Below are positions 1 to 39,851 of a stretch of DNA of 64,000 nt, in pieces. A program made the translations under genes and the position numbers. The notes beneath the pieces were generated by a model. It was given only the letters and a program-made list of their open reading frames with translations, had not been told where the DNA came from and searched no databases. Every line of letters begins with the position of its first letter. Positions within the stretch are counted from its first letter, which is position 1. This stretch comes from Candidatus Saccharimonadota bacterium (GTDB lineage Bacteria; Patescibacteriota; Saccharimonadia; Saccharimonadales; OFTM59), in NCBI GenBank assembly GCA_029260855.1, contig JAJDCK010000001.1, forward strand, positions 1,705 through 65,704, given 5' to 3'.

Positions 1-377
1 TCGTAGAAGAAAAAGATTTCGCTTTGGTGTGGCACTATCGAAATGTATCACCGGATCTAGCCTTTGTGCGCAAGGAAGAGCTAAAGATGGATCTTCAAGG
101 CCAACTTAGCGACAGCGAAATAGGTGTATTTGAAGGTAACAAGATTATTGAGATTAAACCAAAAAATATGCACAAAGGCGCGATTGTCGCTGAACTATTA
201 TCACAAGATAAGTGGGATTTCATAATGGCTATCGGAGACGATTATACCGACGAAGATATGTTCCGCGCCTTGCCAGAGCGGTCATATAGCATTCGTGTCG
301 GAGGAGGCGATACCGCGGCTCGGTATCAACTAGATAGTGTTGATGAGGTGATAAATTTGCTGGCAAATCTTAAGTAG
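1..377 (+). CDS. otsB: trehalose-phosphatase (HAD-IIB), C-terminal part; 5' end lies outside the window
   Basis: The frame is open from nt 3 (VEEKDFALVWHYRNV...). The HAD motif AIGDDYTDEDMF is typical of trehalose-6-phosphate phosphatases. Confidence 0.7.
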   Translation, partial: VEEKDFALVWHYRNVSPDLAFVRKEELKMDLQGQLSDSEIGVFEGNKIIEIKPKNMHKGAIVAELLSQDKWDFIMAIGDDYTDEDMFRALPERSYSIRVGGGDTAARYQLDSVDEVINLLANLK

Positions 378-3701: not shown

Positions 3702-4712
3702 TTATACAGGGGTCTTCTTTTTGGATGACTGCGCATTAACTTCGTAACTAGTGTTGATAGATTCAAAGAAGTTAACAAGCTCAAGCGTATCATTAGCTGT
3801 AGCCATCCATTTAGCTGGGTTACTGACTTTGTACTCAGCCTCAAAGCCAAGCTCTTCCAGTCTACGATCCGCCAGATATTTAACGTATTGATTTATGTAG
3901 TCAGCGTTCAGCCCCAATATACCATTAGGAAGCAGGTCTTTATTATATTGCTCTTCCATAGCAACACCGTCTAGTATCATTTGTTTGATTTCTTGTGCAA
4001 ACTCTTCGGTTTGCAAGTCCGGGTTTTCTTCCAGCACGGTCAGTATTAGGTTGATCCCGAACTTGAGGTGGAGGGACTCATCCCTTACAACCCAACTGAT
4101 TAGTGATCCGAAGTTGCGTAGCAAATTGCGCTGGCGGAAAGACAGAGCAACCATGAAACCGCTATAGAACCAAAGTCCTTCTAGGATAATATTGTAGGCC
4201 ACTAAATTACGGACAAAATCTTTCTTGCCCTCAGTGGTAGTAATATCTATTTGGTTCTCGGTCATGCGTTTGATGAATTTGACCTCAAATTCTTCTTTTT
4301 TGATCATTGAGGGAACTGTTACATGGGCGGCATACGAATCTTCGCGCTCGATAGGAAATGTTTCCAGCACATACTCGAAACTCATGCAATGATTAGCTTC
4401 TTCCCACATCTGTTTGGCCAGGTACATGTGCGCTTCTGGCGCGTTGATGTATGGATAAACACCAAAGGCCAGAGCCTTATTGACTAACAGCTCATTTGGA
4501 TTAAAATAGCTCATTAAAAATTTTAGAGCGTGTTTCTCTTCGTCGCTGAATCTTTTGAAGTCAGCCAGATCTAAGTCAAGCTGAATCTCGTTAGGAAACC
4601 ATGTGTTACGCACCGCTTGCTCGTATAAATCATAGGCCCACTGATAACGGATCGGTTTAAGCAATAAGCCGTCTTGTATACCTGTCCCTAAAATACCCTT
4701 TGGTTGCGCCAT
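3702..4712 (-). CDS. nrdB: ribonucleotide reductase small subunit R2, class Ic-like (Phe at the radical site)
   Basis: Start taken at MAQPKGILG, ATG at 4710-4712, 1 nt after the upstream stop. Ferritin-like ligands are E74, E105-x2-H108, EGLWFYSGF and RDESLHLKFG. It aligns by eye along its length with Chlamydia trachomatis R2. Confidence 0.9.
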   Translation of the reverse strand: MAQPKGILGTGIQDGLLLKPIRYQWAYDLYEQAVRNTWFPNEIQLDLDLADFKRFSDEEKHALKFLMSYFNPNELLVNKALAFGVYPYINAPEAHMYLAKQMWEEANHCMSFEYVLETFPIEREDSYAAHVTVPSMIKKEEFEVKFIKRMTENQIDITTTEGKKDFVRNLVAYNIILEGLWFYSGFMVALSFRQRNLLRNFGSLISWVVRDESLHLKFGINLILTVLEENPDLQTEEFAQEIKQMILDGVAMEEQYNKDLLPNGILGLNADYINQYVKYLADRRLEELGFEAEYKVSNPAKWMATANDTLELVNFFESINTSYEVNAQSSKKKTPV

Positions 4713-8743: not shown

Positions 8744-9358
8744 CTAAATCATCAACTGCTTACGCTTGAAGAATAGTTTTGCCAAAAGCGCAAATATGAG
8801 CACACCAACGTAAAGTAGAGAGAAAGAGGCCGCGAAGACTACCAGGCTATATGTGTTTGTGTCCGCAAATAGCCTTTGCGCCAAAATTGCTACTAAAGGC
8901 GTGAGCACAAAACCCATAAGCATCCCCCATAAGACAATCAGTCCGTACAAAAGAATATGGGCAGAGAACTGAACGAAAACCTCACCCCAGAACCGCCAGC
9001 GGGTGTAATTGCTGGGATGCATGAAATGGGTGTCTACGTTAACGTCGTTTTTTACTTCGGCGTAGACATTATAGACAGACTGCGCCAGACTAAACACAAA
9101 CAAGCCGGTTAGGCTCCAAAATATAAAGACCGCACTTGACGGAACAAAAGTCAGGCCTTCGATAAATTCAAAGAACTTATCTGAATACATACGAAAAACA
9201 TCTTCGCCTGTCTGGGGTACATTACCGGTTTGATTTAGTAGATATGTAGTTATGTATGTGAGATTTGCAACGAACACTATTGCTACGGCGACAAAAAAAT
9301 ATAGCAAAACCTCAAGTTTGCTGGGGACAAGGTAGTCGCTAACTGTGTTCTTTAACAT
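8744..9358 (-). CDS. multi-pass membrane protein, unknown function
   Basis: Start taken at MLKNTVSDYL, because the longer ORF would overlap the sodA 3' end. Several TM helices. Confidence 0.55.
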   Translation of the reverse strand: MLKNTVSDYLVPSKLEVLLYFFVAVAIVFVANLTYITTYLLNQTGNVPQTGEDVFRMYSDKFFEFIEGLTFVPSSAVFIFWSLTGLFVFSLAQSVYNVYAEVKNDVNVDTHFMHPSNYTRWRFWGEVFVQFSAHILLYGLIVLWGMLMGFVLTPLVAILAQRLFADTNTYSLVVFAASFSLLYVGVLIFALLAKLFFKRKQLMI

Positions 9359-29112: not shown

Positions 29113-29198
29113 TGGTGGGCGAGGAGGGACTCGAACCCTCAAGACTTTTGGTCAGCGGATTTTAAGTCCACCGCGTATACCAATTCCGCCACTCGCCC
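29113..29198 (-). tRNA. tRNA-Leu(UAA)
   Basis: Manual fold: acceptor GGGCGAG/CTCGCCC, anticodon loop CUUAAAA, long variable arm, encoded CCA. Confidence 0.9.
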
Positions 29199-29219
29199 GG
29201 CGTGGATAAGGACGCAGTC

Positions 29220-29227
29220 ATTATACA
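29220..29227 (-). promoter_or_regulatory. extended -10 (TGTATAAT) upstream of tRNA-Leu(UAA)
   Basis: On the minus strand, TGTATAAT ends ~21 nt before the tRNA 5' end. Confidence 0.35.
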
Positions 29228-29300
29228 GGACGGGCACAGGGGTCCCCAAGCCGAGAGGATTCGACTTGGGGTAAAGCGAGGCTGTGCACGGAAGCTGGAA

Positions 29301-29328
29301 GTAAAAAGCTTCCGGTTTTTACGGAAGC
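29301..29328 (-). terminator. intrinsic terminator after tRNA-Cys
   Basis: On the minus strand: GCTTCCG-TAAAAAC-CGGAAGC followed by TTTTTAC. Confidence 0.55.
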
Positions 29329-29346
29329 TGAAGCTGCACAATGAGC

Positions 29347-29420
29347 TGGAGGCGCGTACCGGAATCGCACCGGTGTACAGGGTTTTGCAGACCCTTGCCT
29401 AACTACTCGGCCAACGCGCC
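29347..29420 (-). tRNA. tRNA-Cys(GCA)
   Basis: Acceptor GGCGCGT/ACGCGCC, anticodon loop CUGCAAA, discriminator U73 (a Cys identity element), encoded CCA. The T-loop TGCGATT is unusual. Confidence 0.85.
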
Positions 29421-35538: not shown

Positions 35539-37239
35539 ATGGGTATGGCAGAACTTACCAGTACCCAGAAACTACTAGAGCTACTTCAAGCCGGTCTACC
35601 AAAAGCCCCAGGGGATGTGGATACAGGTACTATTAACTACGCCCTGTACGCTAGGAAATCTACTACCAGCGAAGATAGACAAGCCTCATCTATTGAAGAC
35701 CAGGTAACAGAGTGTATGGAAAAGGTTGTTGTACCAAACGACCTAAATATTGTTAAGGTCTATGAAGAGAGCTTCTCGGCAAAGATTGCTGATACGCGCG
35801 ATGAGTTTAAAGCGCTCATTAACGAGATAGAGAACGGTCATATTGATGGTCTCATTGCTTGGCATCCTGACCGTCTAGCGCGCAATATGAAAGAGGCGGG
35901 GGCGATTATTGACCTTGTAGACAGAGGACTAATTAAAGACCTCCGCTTTCCTACCTTCACCTTTGAAAACACTCCCGCCGGTAAAATGCTGCTCGGCATT
36001 ACATTTGTTATGGCTAAGCAGTATTCGGAACACCTTGCGGAAAGCGTTGACCGTGGGAACAAGCGAGCCATAGAGGACGGCGAGTTTATTGGTAAATTCA
36101 AGCACGGCTACACGGTTGATATTAACCGTACATTCCAGCCCGACCCTCGCAACTTCACGAAGGTTAAACATATGTTTACTATGGCTGTTGAGGGCAAGTC
36201 TCAAAAGCAAATCCGCGAGTGGATAAACGAGCAAGGCTACACGGTCCAAAAGCGCCCAGGTGGCGAGTATGAGCCTCACAAATGGGATAAGGACGATGTC
36301 TCAAAGCTCATCCGAGACCCGCACTACGCAGGTGTCCATAAATGGGGCAAGAACTTCACTGACCTTATGGAGGCTTACGATTTTGAGCCAATGATTTCAG
36401 TAGATGACTTCTTAAAGATAAACAAAGTTGATAGTCTCAACTCTGCAAAGATACTTGCCATTAGTAGACCACGAGGCGGCAACATTCGGGCAGACCTACT
36501 GAGGGGCAAGGTTTATTGTGGCGCGTGTAATAAGACACTCACCTCAATGTTGATTGATAAAAGGGATAAAGAAACCAAGGAAATTATTCAGTCACGCTAC
36601 TACTACAAATGCGAGACTGAGGGTTGCGCCGTAGAGGGTAGTTCTGCCCGTGCTGGATTAGTTGTCAGCGCCGCACAGCAGTTCTTTCAGGATTATTTAT
36701 TCATTACCAAGGGCAACTACGCCCACTTCGTTAAAGAGGCTGAAAAAGAGGCAAAGCGTAAGTCCGCAGAGTTTGACAGCATTATTGCTCGGTCAAAAAT
36801 CACTATCGCCAACAAGGAAAAATCATACGAGCGCACTAAAGATCTCATCCTCAAAAACCCTGACCTCAAAGAGCATTATGACCTAGATAAGTACAGCAAA
36901 GAGATTGAGAAAATAAGGAAGGACTTCGTTAAAGCTACGAAACAGCGCGACAACATCAAGAGCGCCATACCAACATTTGAAGAATACCTTAAACTTTTAG
37001 AAACCACCCCTGTTATCCTGGGCAAGATACGGGATATGAAGGTAATGGATGTGCTGCTAAGGATTTTCTTCTCTAATTTCACCATAATTCCAGGCGAAGA
37101 CGGCTTCCGTAAGGGGTCAACAGTGACCATAAAACTAAACGAACCCTGGGAAGGGTTCGTTGTTGCCAATGATTTCGTTCGTGGTGCGGGTAAAGGGACT
37201 CTAACCCTTGGCCTCGTCCTTGGCAAGGACGCGCTCTAA
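35539..37239 (+). CDS. large serine recombinase (integrase)
   Basis: N-terminal resolvase domain (YALYARKSTTSEDRQASSIEDQ), recombinase domain, Cys-rich zinc ribbon (CGACNK...YYYKCETEGC) and a coiled-coil C-terminus. The last 58 nt are antisense to tRNA-Gly. Confidence 0.88.
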   Translation: MGMAELTSTQKLLELLQAGLPKAPGDVDTGTINYALYARKSTTSEDRQASSIEDQVTECMEKVVVPNDLNIVKVYEESFSAKIADTRDEFKALINEIENGHIDGLIAWHPDRLARNMKEAGAIIDLVDRGLIKDLRFPTFTFENTPAGKMLLGITFVMAKQYSEHLAESVDRGNKRAIEDGEFIGKFKHGYTVDINRTFQPDPRNFTKVKHMFTMAVEGKSQKQIREWINEQGYTVQKRPGGEYEPHKWDKDDVSKLIRDPHYAGVHKWGKNFTDLMEAYDFEPMISVDDFLKINKVDSLNSAKILAISRPRGGNIRADLLRGKVYCGACNKTLTSMLIDKRDKETKEIIQSRYYYKCETEGCAVEGSSARAGLVVSAAQQFFQDYLFITKGNYAHFVKEAEKEAKRKSAEFDSIIARSKITIANKEKSYERTKDLILKNPDLKEHYDLDKYSKEIEKIRKDFVKATKQRDNIKSAIPTFEEYLKLLETTPVILGKIRDMKVMDVLLRIFFSNFTIIPGEDGFRKGSTVTIKLNEPWEGFVVANDFVRGAGKGTLTLGLVLGKDAL

Positions 37240-37258
37240 ACAACTGAGCTACACCCGC
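37182..37258 (-). tRNA. tRNA-Gly(GCC)
   Basis: Manual fold: acceptor GCGGGTG/TACCCGC, D-arm GCTC-AGTTGTTTA-GAGC, anticodon arm CGTCC-TTGCCAA-GGACG, T-arm AAGGG-TTAGAGT-CCCTT, encoded CCA. Confidence 0.85.
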
Positions 37259-37312
37259 ATGTTTGAACTGACATATTCTGTCAGAGTTCTGTGAGTTTTT
37301 AAAGAGCACGTT

Positions 37313-37330
37313 CTTGGCCTGGCAAGGACG
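37313..37330 (-). pseudogene. tRNA-Gly anticodon/variable-region remnant with a 7-nt deletion
   Basis: cttggcc|tggcaaggacg equals 37207-37213 plus 37221-37231 of the intact gene, lacking tcgtcct. Confidence 0.5.
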
Positions 37331-37358
37331 GTCACGCTAGCGCAACCACATTCTGCGG

Positions 37359-37507
37359 CCCCGACACTGACTTACTTGAAACAAGTTTCAAATCAGTCAG
37401 ATGTCCTTGCAATGAGCCACCAGCTCATCTCACCCGAAGCCTCCTTACTTTAAACAAGTTTAAAATCTGAAAGGCTTCCTTGCGAACTGCCACCGGGCAG
37501 TTCTCAC
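37359..37507 (-). repeat. two tandem ~75-nt structured modules (A 37434-37507, B 37359-37433)
   Basis: Shared frame GTGAGA-hairpin1-TYGCAAGGA-hairpin2(CTTG loop)-TCGG(GG), with covarying stems. See findings. Confidence 0.75.
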
Positions 37508-37533
37508 TCTAAACAACTGAGCTACACCCGCAT
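37507..37533 (-). pseudogene. truncated 5' copy of tRNA-Gly (positions 1-25 plus 2 upstream nt)
   Basis: 27-nt perfect direct repeat of 37234-37260. Confidence 0.8.
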
Positions 37534-37716
37534 CTTTGCGAAGCAAAGTTTGGCGCCCCCTCCCAAACAGCGGACTAAAGTCCTCTTTCGCTCAGTCATG
37601 CTCAGAGTAAACTTTTGCGCGCGACTTCGCTTCACCGACTGGTCGCTACGCGACCTTCCAGTTCGAGCCTGTGCGGCCATATAAATATTACAGTCTGATG
37701 ACTGAAATATTTATAA

Positions 37717-37792
37717 TGGTGGCTCCTCCCAGACTCGAACTGGGGACACAAGGCTCTTCAAGCCTCTGCTCTACCAACTGAGCTAAAGAGCC
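37717..37792 (-). tRNA. tRNA-Phe(GAA)
   Basis: Acceptor GGCTCTT/AGGAGCC, D-arm GCTC-AGTTGGTA-GAGC, anticodon loop TTGAAGA, encoded CCA. Confidence 0.88.
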
Positions 37793-39247: not shown

Positions 39248-39378
39248 AGCAGACTCCGTCCTTTATCCGCTGCGGCATGCTCGGAGCAAACTCCTGCGCG
39301 TGTCCTCACTACAACGACCCCGACCTTTGCCAGCTAAAGCTGTCAAGTCGGAGAACCGCGTCTGATTACATAGCCAAT

Positions 39379-39411: not shown

Positions 39412-39488
39412 TGGTGGGTGATGAGGGACTCGAACCCCCGACCCTCTCGGTGTAAACGAGATGCTCTAGCCAACTGAGCTAATCACCC
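39412..39488 (-). tRNA. tRNA-Val(UAC)
   Basis: Acceptor GGGTGAT/ATCACCC, anticodon arm TCTCG-TTTACAC-CGAGA, T-loop TTCGAGT, encoded CCA. Confidence 0.9.
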
Positions 39489-39516
39489 TTGATTGTCAAT
39501 ATAATAGCACATCTTT

Positions 39517-39603
39517 TGGTGCGGATGAGAGGACTTGAACCTCCATGAGCCGAAGCCCACTAGCCCCTGAAGCTAGCGCGTCTACCAATTCCGCCACATC
39601 CGC
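39517..39603 (-). tRNA. tRNA-Leu(CAG)
   Basis: Acceptor GCGGATG/CATCCGC, anticodon arm CTAGC-TTCAGGG-GCTAG, 15-nt variable arm, encoded CCA. Confidence 0.9.
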
Positions 39604-39659
39604 ATACTGTAATCAATGGTTCAAGATGTAATTATAAAGGACTTGGTCACGTCCCGCGA

Positions 39660-39732
39660 CCCCGAAACTTCGCTATTGGCAACAAGTTGCCATCGGAAGA
39701 TTTCCTTGCGAAGTGCCACCGGCACTTCTCAC
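39660..39732 (-). repeat. structured module C (third copy of the 37359-37507 family)
   Basis: GTGAGA-AGTGC CGGTG GCACT-TCGCAAGGA-...TGGCAA CTTG TTGCCA...-TCGGGG. Confidence 0.75.
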
Positions 39733-39795
39733 CTCCATGAGCCGAAGCCCACTAGCCCCTGAAGCTAGCGCGTCTACCAATTCCGCCACATCCGC
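39733..39795 (-). pseudogene. truncated 5' copy of tRNA-Leu(CAG) (positions 1-63/65)
   Basis: Part of a 66-nt perfect direct repeat (39731-39796 equals 39539-39604). It lacks the T-loop and the 3' acceptor strand. Confidence 0.85.
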
Positions 39796-39851
39796 ATTTT
39801 AGAGCAGCTGAGGATTGAACTTTACAATCTTACGAGGTATAAGCACAAAAC

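Follow-up and report, generated by a model that had tools for sequence, protein, structure and literature searches.

A family of three-hairpin inserts at the tRNA genes of Saccharibacteria and its probable nature as a small mobile element

Tiny non-autonomous inserts of bacterial genomes include the derivatives of IS200/IS605 and the REP/REPIN repeats, mobilised by HUH/Y1 enzymes; in IS608 the target or cleavage site is recognised through base pairing at the foot of a hairpin. The Rickettsia palindromic elements are repeats that resemble miniature inverted-repeat transposable elements (MITEs), lineage-specific, hairpin-forming selfish inserts of ~100 nt that are tolerated within genes and RNA genes of a reduced genome, and no transposase is known for them. 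Group III introns are not known outside euglenoid plastids. Inserts in tRNA genes are represented by the archaeal introns at non-canonical positions, for which ‘intron transposition’ has been described in Thermoproteales (PMC4090602, PMC4033280), and by the Patescibacteria group I introns that reside in tRNA genes, which are at least 200 nt long, have a P3–P9 catalytic core, interrupt functional genes at the anticodon loop and can be detected with RF00028 (PMC13011429); group II introns are reported to be absent from that phylum (PMC13011429). Here we describe a family of 86–88 nt inserts that recalls each of these in part, starting from three copies in a 64,000-nt stretch (the window) of a Candidatus Saccharimonadota bacterium (GCA_029260855.1, contig JAJDCK010000001.1, positions 1,705 to 65,704). 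The family is previously undescribed and essentially restricted to the Saccharibacteria lineage, and we class it as a miniature non-autonomous mobile element, with a minority chance that it is something categorically new.

The unit has the order GUGAGA-P1-UYGCAAGGAAA-P2-UUUCGG-P3, with three hairpins and no open reading frame (ORF). P2 is a long hairpin and P3 is a third, covarying hairpin lying 3′ of the UCGG (e.g. GGUCGCG-GAA-CGUGACC); the inserted unit is 86 nt, and the element is 88 nt when the three to four bases needed to complete P3 are counted. A first-pass annotation of the window had recognised this repeat, which is real, but the ~75 nt that it assigned to the module is too short, with the covarying P3 missed. 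An exact-pattern scan of one genome per species (185,579 species genomes) gave 110 loci, ~80 of which are full elements in metagenome-assembled genomes (MAGs) of Saccharibacteria/Saccharimonadales type. A few of the MAGs with full elements bear other taxon labels, and the remaining loci are chance matches within coding sequence in other phyla. By this strict pattern there are one to a few copies per genome, the distribution is patchy, and the tRNA neighbours differ from genome to genome. A covariance model (R1) built from copies of other genomes and then run on the window and on related loci (cited here by L numbers) identifies 100 copies across 81 of these loci, with covarying stems, and the contexts include ~17 different tRNA isoacceptors and three tRNA arms. 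In the window the same model finds exactly three copies and nothing else in 64 kb (E-values from 4e-22 to 2e-8), which we refer to as C (104.9 bits), B (74.9 bits) and A (45.0 bits). All three are on the minus strand where they had been annotated, and their common frame, GTGAGA-N5-8-GGTG-N5-6-TYGCAAGGA, occurs three times in the window against none expected (100 shuffles).

The P1 and P2 stems fold as first drawn, with folding z-scores of −4.3, −4.6 and −2.5 for the three window copies, but the reverse strand folds about equally well and folding energy alone does not select a strand. In an alignment of 73 distinct copies (97 columns) the consensus structure has 34 pairs, 22 of which have changes on both sides; 97.8% of cells in these pairs are paired, against 79.1% in column shuffles, and the observed values were reached by none of 500 shuffles. 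Pairing collapses to 25–46% when the register is slid by one to three columns. These values indicate, as had been proposed, a fold that is under selection rather than a decaying repeat. There are 150 G.U or U.G pairs and 16 A.C or C.A pairs (48 and 16 when two fixed wobble columns are excluded), and because G.U far outnumbers A.C, the structure is borne by the tRNA-sense strand, the strand first chosen. One G.U pair in P3 is kept in 66 of the 73 copies. Part of the conservation of GUGAGA, GGUG and UYGCAAGGA from genome to genome comes from the search pattern, which fixed these motifs, and copies found only by the model vary there (GUGAAA, GCGAGA, GUGAGG). The CUUG tetraloop that had been taken as conserved is the commonest P2 loop (38/73), but CUAUG, CUGG, CUAG and others occur in its place.

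The copies are closely associated with tRNA genes and always in one orientation. Where an intact tRNA gene lies within 200 nt, the element is on the same strand, within a partial duplicate of that tRNA, in 71 instances and on the opposite strand in none, and this includes loci with tRNAs on both strands (e.g. L023). The intact tRNA is upstream of 42 copies, downstream of 25, and on both sides of one. Two arrangements account for nearly all of these. In the one that we call T1 (42 copies), the intact tRNA is followed by a terminator and then by an inverted 3′ part of the tRNA that continues directly from the T-run; after a turn of 3–5 nt come ~8–10 nt of forward tRNA, the element, and the rest of the tRNA through CCA, often with a second terminator afterwards. 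In the other, T2 (25 copies, including both window loci), a 5′ fragment of the tRNA, sometimes with a few leader bases, is followed by the element; the tRNA then continues for ~10 nt, and a short segment in inverted orientation and a spacer lead on to the intact tRNA. Some tRNAs have both (L019; L102, Ca. Saccharimonas aalborgensis). For the copies that have no tRNA nearby (L034, L045, L051, L073, L036) a search for the RNA in which they reside gave nothing. The inverted, or fold-back, arms pair with exon sequence on both sides of the element yet exclude the element itself; decay of the arms or loss of their acceptor strand is frequent beside an intact element, and some T2 fold-backs take in sequence upstream of the tRNA (L021).

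The 5′ junctions follow a simple rule. By placing the 5′ flank of each copy on the adjacent intact tRNA we could map 52 of them, and all 52 lie immediately 5′ of a G, with the three bases at this position being GGT (26), GTT (17), GCG (5), GCA (2), GTC (1) and GAG (1). Most sites are in the T-stem (37), with 11 in the D loop or at position 26, two in the anticodon arm and two unclassified, one of which, at tRNA-Leu(UAG) in L102, maps to the anticodon loop. The last exon base 5′ of the element is variable (G 38, A 8, C 5, T 1). At the other end, the three bases that follow the ...GU of the element form the outer pairs of P3, and they vary in step with the P3 5′ strand (GUC/GAC, CUC/GAG, CCU/AGG, CCC/GGG, GCC/GGC).

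Comparison with an empty site documents one insertion directly. The SPFH protein beside the tRNA cluster of the window has a 95% identical homologue in the genome GCA_029260875.1 (L113), found by homology search with the window protein, and L113 has the same T2 unit at tRNA-Gly but with a single module (9146–9237, 45.4 bits). Alignment of the two reveals an exact 86-nt extra segment in the window between ...TTCGG and GGTYGCGCTAG..., that is, between P2 and P3 of copy A. This segment is copy B (37348–37433, minus strand; GTGAGATGAGC...GCAGAATGT). Because B is an 86-nt gap inside A in this alignment, the two are nested and not the tandem copies of the first description. The 5′ part of A (P1 and P2, 37434–37507, minus strand) is the older and matches the model with P3 missing; its P3, GGTTGCG-CTAG-CGTGACC, has been displaced to 37330–37347 (minus strand) and is collinear with GGTCGCGCTAGTGTGGCC in L113. 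The insertion made no target duplication, and there is no inverted repetition between its ends (GTGAGA... and ...AATGT). It lies between CGG and GGT, with a placement that is ambiguous by 1 nt, and its 3′ end falls directly after the U of the conserved P3 G.U pair. The target’s own GGTT, the first four bases of the displaced P3, also completes the P3 of B, in which the 5′ strand has GGCC where its relatives have GGUC; the model match of B spans 37433–37344, running through this GGTT.

This nesting is not confined to the window. Copies of the B-type subfamily (P1 GAUGAGCC/GGCUCAUC) lie within unrelated A copies of L048, L071 and L102 at the identical CGG^GG site, beside other tRNAs and in each case followed by the leftover P3 of A, and there is a degenerate nested example in L027. 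The linker and P3 of A (UUCGGGGUCGCG) resemble a T arm (UUCGGGGGUUCGA), a likeness that may explain why A serves as a target. In the window and in L113 alike, copy A has degenerated (45 bits), and the orthologous units at tRNA-Gly in L009, L060 and L012 score 84–102 bits, an indication that resident copies can decay. Occupancy of a given slot also changes: the position after tRNA-Val holds an element in L060 and, in the same architecture, an unrelated insert of ~70 nt (‘module-2’) in the window, and L113 has module-2 after tRNA-Leu instead.

We favour, at slightly better than even odds, the interpretation that these are small, non-autonomous, ORF-less and structure-dependent selfish mobile elements that colonise tRNA-like sequence. 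A mobile origin fits best because of the clean presence/absence polymorphism, the nested insertions and the ~17 tRNA contexts. It had been foreseen in part: a miniature tRNA-targeting mobile element was among the first suggestions, but as the terminal structure of something larger, and the units are small and complete. Building on the family, fold, strand, junction rule, dated insertion and nesting described above, we infer selfish mobility as the reason for the conservation, along with target pairing by P3, a selection filter and a mobilising activity acting in trans. The element would act as a single strand of tRNA-sense polarity, either RNA or single-stranded DNA, with its three hairpins maintained by compensatory change. 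It would enter tRNA-like sequence immediately 5′ of a G, usually at a GGU of the T stem or D loop and otherwise at position 26, in the anticodon arm, or in a T-arm-like linker, CGG^GGUC, of another copy. Pairing would join the P3 5′ strand to the bases that stand where the target has its GGU(Y), so that the 3′ junction would be enclosed by a helix and come directly after the U of the near-invariant G.U. Insertion would inactivate the tRNA copy that is entered and would be lethal in a working gene; the survivors would be insertions in, or created together with, a redundant partial duplicate beside the intact gene, and almost all copies would be in a T1 or T2 arrangement because only these survive. 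Mobilisation would be by an activity supplied from elsewhere. As to the route, the wobble at the junction, the pairing of P3 with the 3′ exon partly by G.U, the strict tRNA orientation (L023) and the arms that lack the element point towards RNA, and the resemblance to IS200/IS605, the L021 fold-backs with upstream sequence and the reported absence of group II introns from the phylum point towards single-stranded DNA.

Several observations weigh against this interpretation. The search for an enzyme gave none: tblastn with two IS200/IS605 TnpA queries had no match at E<0.6 in the window and the flanks of the loci (~0.95 Mb), and no mobilising enzyme was found in these flanks, with a large serine recombinase near only 3 of the 81 loci. 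None of the species genomes contains a larger parent that shares the 5′ end of the element, and the Saccharibacteria matches are all complete small units. Three pattern scans of viral contigs gave no element, only one chance coding match (L001) and six loci without a model match. One insertion only is dated by direct empty-site comparison, and the junctions are ambiguous by 1–3 nt, such that target bases may have been lost. Copies within a genome are no more alike than copies between genomes (identity 0.744 and 0.737; permutation p ~0.3), which argues against frequent recent bursts within genomes, a scenario that we reject, and fits old, constrained copies. In many units perfect stems persist inside decayed arms and tRNA fragments, for example in L038 (95 bits) and L077 (98 bits), which suggests constraint on resident copies and thus a possible host-level function or gene conversion. 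Finally, the origin of the fold-back arms fits no simple insertion model. Hairpin-primed copying of the interrupted strand, Campbell-type integration of a small circle and an IS607-like crossover at GG were each considered and each fails, either because the arms span the insertion site yet lack the element or because the G count at the junction of the dated insertion is wrong. Template switching at the palindrome of the terminator would produce a duplication-inversion-duplication layout, not an element in one arm only.

The lack of an enzyme or parent, the lack of excess similarity within genomes, and the intact elements in decayed flanks keep two other explanations alive. The stronger, although we judge it unlikely, is that the module is a structured RNA of the host, a cis-acting or released small RNA with a role such as processing, stability or protein binding; it would be co-transcribed with tRNA genes, the partial tRNA copies being its vehicle into tRNA transcription units. 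Such a role would account for the strong conservation of the structure and the near-invariant G.U (66/73), for its restriction to the sense strand, for the constant placement on the tRNA strand within ~100 nt of a tRNA gene, for elements that are intact where the flanking relics have decayed, for the unexceptional similarity within genomes, and for the synteny of the Gly unit in at least five genomes. It is harder to reconcile with a patchy distribution of one to a few copies per genome (by the strict pattern) beside differing tRNAs, with a copy A that is degenerate in two related genomes and disrupted by another copy, and with unrelated insert families in the same slots. Moreover, the units downstream of a tRNA follow its terminator and would be transcribed by read-through only. 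Scans for consensus promoters were at chance level (4 found against 3.5 expected).

A less probable explanation again is that the element is a new, very small tRNA intron, either self-splicing or removed by endonuclease and ligase, which spreads by reverse splicing or ‘intron transposition’, with the partial-copy arrangements as relics of intron loss or of repair through cDNA. In one form, to which we give the same low probability, a bacterial tRNA intron or ribozyme of ~86 nt is inserted and removed at the RNA level, with the P3 5′ strand as the guide to a 3′ exon GGU(Y); the conserved G.U could then mark the reaction site, and the fold-back copies could be cDNA-type repair from spliced or uninterrupted transcripts. 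The location in tRNA loops and arms in the sense orientation, the GUGAG 5′ end, the 3′ junction within a helix with the first bases of the 3′ exon and right after a G.U wobble, the twintron-like nesting, and fold-back arms without the element, as a copy of a spliced RNA would be, are all in keeping with this, and Patescibacteria are unusually rich in tRNA introns (PMC13011429). In a splice-join test (107,760 joins), however, removal of the element restored a tRNA for only 2 of 83 pattern-selected copies, a tRNA-Glu with the element in the D loop (L086) and a tRNA-Gly with it in the T arm (L079); functional introns as a general explanation are rejected on this result. Both genes are otherwise complete around the element, which speaks for an intron, but the restored T loop of L079 would be GGAGAGU, without U54 and U55. 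Almost all copies have an intact gene next to them, the pattern to be expected from insertions that kill the copy they enter; Rfam at E≤10 detects neither a group I nor a group II core, 86 nt is far under the size of any known self-splicing intron, and the junctions differ by 1–3 nt between units.

Rather more doubtful is that the units are scars of integrase activity, the repeated tRNA ends being attL and attR of elements that have lost their interior and the module a leftover arm. Direct repeats of tRNA 3′ ends that start in the T arm do flank inserts of ~180 nt, as at att sites borne by tRNAs, and tRNA-Gly has a gene for a large serine recombinase directly beside it in the window, L113, L115 and L116. 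The module, however, splits the tRNA repeat exactly at the would-be crossover instead of lying beside it, the same module is in D-arm and anticodon-arm sites and inside another copy, and the nested 86-nt insertion has no att-like repeats. Homologues of the recombinase are near L101/L111 and L017 only (3/81 loci), and we reject linkage to this gene. The remaining explanation, in which there is no selected element but only by-products of fold-back (template-switch) replication that are alike by chance or local duplication, draws on the frequency of fold-back arms and partial duplications around tRNA genes (48 and 27 of 142 tRNAs), with several different inserts. It is effectively refuted by the occurrence of the same 88-nt sequence and fold in ~100 copies from dozens of species in ~17 tRNA contexts with compensatory changes, and by the chance expectation of zero for the pattern in the window.

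Searches for a described relative were negative. Rfam 15 (4227 models) has no match at 37344–37507 or 39645–39732, either at gathering thresholds or at E≤10, in agreement with the first inspection by eye, and on the window and 23 related loci the same searches gave only tRNA, rRNA and one unrelated group I intron. RF00005 and ARAGORN match the flanking genes and never the module, which has no tRNA model match at E≤10, and the tRNA-derived origin entertained at first finds no support here. The element is also undescribed in the searchable literature.

Of the known systems, the element would appear to work most like the IS200/IS605-derived or REP-type hairpin elements and to be distributed most like the archaeal tRNA introns, although it departs from every family compared in that family’s defining features. 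With IS200/IS605 derivatives and REP/REPIN it shares a tiny size, the lack of an ORF, of terminal inverted repeats and of target duplication, strand-specific covarying hairpins, insertion next to a short specific sequence, and what looks like a reading of the target or cleavage site by pairing with bases at the foot of a hairpin. However, the conserved target of IS200/IS605 is a 4–5 nt sequence immediately 5′ of the left end, whereas here the conserved bases are 3′ of the insert (G in 52/52, GGT or GTT in 43/52); there are three hairpins in place of one at each end; the element keeps the orientation of the tRNA gene even where the locus has tRNAs on both strands; and neither a Y1 transposase in the ~0.95 Mb of flanks (queries as above) nor a parent element was seen. 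Classical MITEs, derived from DDE transposons, have terminal inverted repeats and a target duplication of fixed length, and the element has neither.

The archaeal introns are likewise short, related, ORF-less sense inserts in D, anticodon and T arms of many tRNA genes in one lineage. They reside in functional genes and are cut by EndA at a bulge-helix-bulge, with both junctions in 3-nt bulges around a 4-bp helix, whereas here the hosts are nearly all dead partial copies next to an intact gene, the 3′ junction is inside the continuous P3 helix, the 5′ junction is 1 nt before P1, and the organism is bacterial; removal leaves a functional tRNA with archaeal-type introns, and here restores a tRNA for only 2/83 pattern-selected copies. 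The group I introns of Patescibacteria have in common with the element the phylum and the kind of host gene. A further parallel may be their G.U wobble at a junction inside a guide helix, since the dated insertion has its 3′ end just after the U of the near-invariant P3 G.U; in group I introns, however, the wobble marks the 5′ splice site. The element is 86–88 nt long with no RF00028 match at E≤10. Group II and III introns and twintrons offer the 5′ GUGAG (compare GUGYG), the pairing of the 3′ exon with an internal strand, and nesting, and the ~100 nt of group III introns is a similar size; unlike group II introns, the element lacks a domain V hairpin with an AGC triad, a bulged branch-point A as in domain VI and a 3′ terminal AY (it ends ...GU), and Rfam gives no group II match to the module. 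The Rickettsia palindromic elements are alike in being lineage-specific, ~100 nt, hairpin-forming and without a known transposase; they are, however, single palindromes that are often in frame in protein genes, and the element has three hairpins, is linked to tRNAs and goes with partial tRNA duplications. Integrase att remnants differ in the position of the crossover and in their association with a recombinase, as noted above.

If selfish mobility is correct, the ultra-small, genome-reduced Saccharibacteria, in which junk should be purged, carry tiny structured mobile inserts that colonise tRNA loci and are tied to a striking remodelling of these loci, where parts of tRNAs are duplicated, arms fold back, units form serial arrays, and close relatives differ by local inversions. 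They would provide a tractable case for asking how minimal genomes come to keep selfish elements, how single-copy genes that are essential withstand being targeted, and which activity in trans recognises a single strand with three hairpins. For annotation too the units are relevant, since standard tools miss or miscall the tRNA fragments, and the occasional interrupted tRNA genes, to which they give rise. If instead the element were an intron or ribozyme, it would be a new class of catalytic or spliced RNA, no known mobile intron would be smaller, and archaeal tRNA intron transposition would have a bacterial counterpart.

The two window units are both of the T2 type and on the minus strand. 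In the Leu unit the complete copy C (39645–39732, 88 nt, with P1, P2 and P3; E=3.9e-22, model positions 1–88) directly abuts a 5′ fragment of tRNA-Leu(CAG) at 39733–39795 that comprises the first 63 nt of the tRNA, from position 1 into the 5′ strand of the T-stem, with the junction TGGAG^GTTC. A 67-nt exact repeat between 39731–39797 and 39539–39605, at the intact tRNA, includes 2 nt upstream of the tRNA and the GT that it has in common with the start of the element. The tail (39604–39644), read from the sequence, consists of a decayed T-loop/T-stem remnant (AAGTCCTTT), a short inverted T-arm copy (CTTGAACC) and a spacer to the functional tRNA-Leu(CAG) at 39517–39603 (ARAGORN; Rfam tRNA, 54.5 bits), and a terminator-like hairpin at 39655–39638 bridges the junction of P3 and the remnant. 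The Gly unit begins with a 25-nt 5′ fragment of tRNA-Gly(GCC) at 37508–37532, with the acceptor 5′ strand and D arm, ending in TTAGA^ (junction TTAGA^GCGC) and part of a 32-nt repeat (37507–37538 and 37234–37265, 97% identity). Copies A and B and the displaced P3 follow, then a remainder at 37259–37329 with a folded-back anticodon-arm remnant (GTCCTTGCCAGGCCAAGAAC) and a spacer of ~50 nt, and the intact tRNA-Gly(GCC) at 37182–37258 (ARAGORN; Rfam tRNA, 67.8 bits). Every copy had first been said to start where a tRNA 5′ fragment ends, which holds for A and C but not for B, which starts inside A. The Gly arrangement is kept in L113, L009, L060 and L012 and is thus syntenic in at least five genomes.

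The last ~58 nt of a gene at 35539–37239 (plus strand) are antisense to this tRNA-Gly; the gene encodes a 566-residue large serine recombinase with Resolvase, Recombinase and zinc-ribbon domains, and its adjacency to tRNA-Gly in the window, L113, L115 and L116 suggests an integrated element with a tRNA-Gly attachment site.

Other arrangements of the elements are seen at individual loci. There are serial T1 arrays in L095 (2848–3116) and L110 (5914–6190), each with two successive units after one tRNA and with different terminators. In L010, at a contig start, two copies lie tail to tail and 7 nt apart (16–103, plus strand; 111–198, minus strand) forming a large palindrome, the only inverted pair of copies seen. 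Longer relatives are present at ~3090–3190 in L012, after tRNA-Leu(GAG), and in L024 upstream of the tRNA-Gln at 191–265. Both have GUGAG, a longer P1, CGCAAGG, P2, and then CGGGGUCGCG and an AU-rich extra hairpin before CGUGACC; both are missed by model R1, and they point to a probable wider superfamily.

Partial tRNA duplications extend beyond the element. Among 142 tRNAs of the 81 Saccharibacteria loci and L113–L117, a sample biased by the choice of loci for carrying the element, the last 20 nt are repeated within 450 nt downstream for 48 and the first 16 nt are repeated upstream for 27. Seventeen of these tRNA-end repeats carry inserts other than the element studied here, among them the longer relatives in L012 and L024 and a hairpin of 25 nt that is inserted into the D loop of a fragment of tRNA-Leu(GAG) and conserved in L115–L117. 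Module-2 (core GAGGACACGCGCAGGAGUUUGCUCCGAGCAUGCCGCAGCGGAUAAAGGACGGAGUCUGCU) is a second, unrelated and conserved insert family, present at 39248–39318 (minus strand, after tRNA-Val) and 37565–37640 (minus strand, after tRNA-Phe) in the window, at 4455–4525 in L113 and at ~3930–3990 in L060. In a partial 3′ copy of a tRNA it stands in place of the T loop, in a layout of terminator, fold-back arm, insert and 3′ fragment, and its single-sequence folds are no better than those of shuffled sequences. The tRNA-Leu(CAG)/tRNA-Val pair and tRNA-Phe are inverted in L113 (4303–4693 and 6103–6178) relative to the window (39412–39603 and 37717–37792), with the flanking protein genes collinear, and the acceptor stem of tRNA-Leu(CAG) differs between the two (GCGCGAG against GCGGAUG). 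The spacer between tRNA-Cys and tRNA-Leu(UAA) in the window (29198–29347, minus strand) has a hairpin, CCCCAAG-UCGAAUCCUCUCGG-CUUGGGG, with a T-loop-like UCGAAUCC, and may be another tRNA-derived relic.

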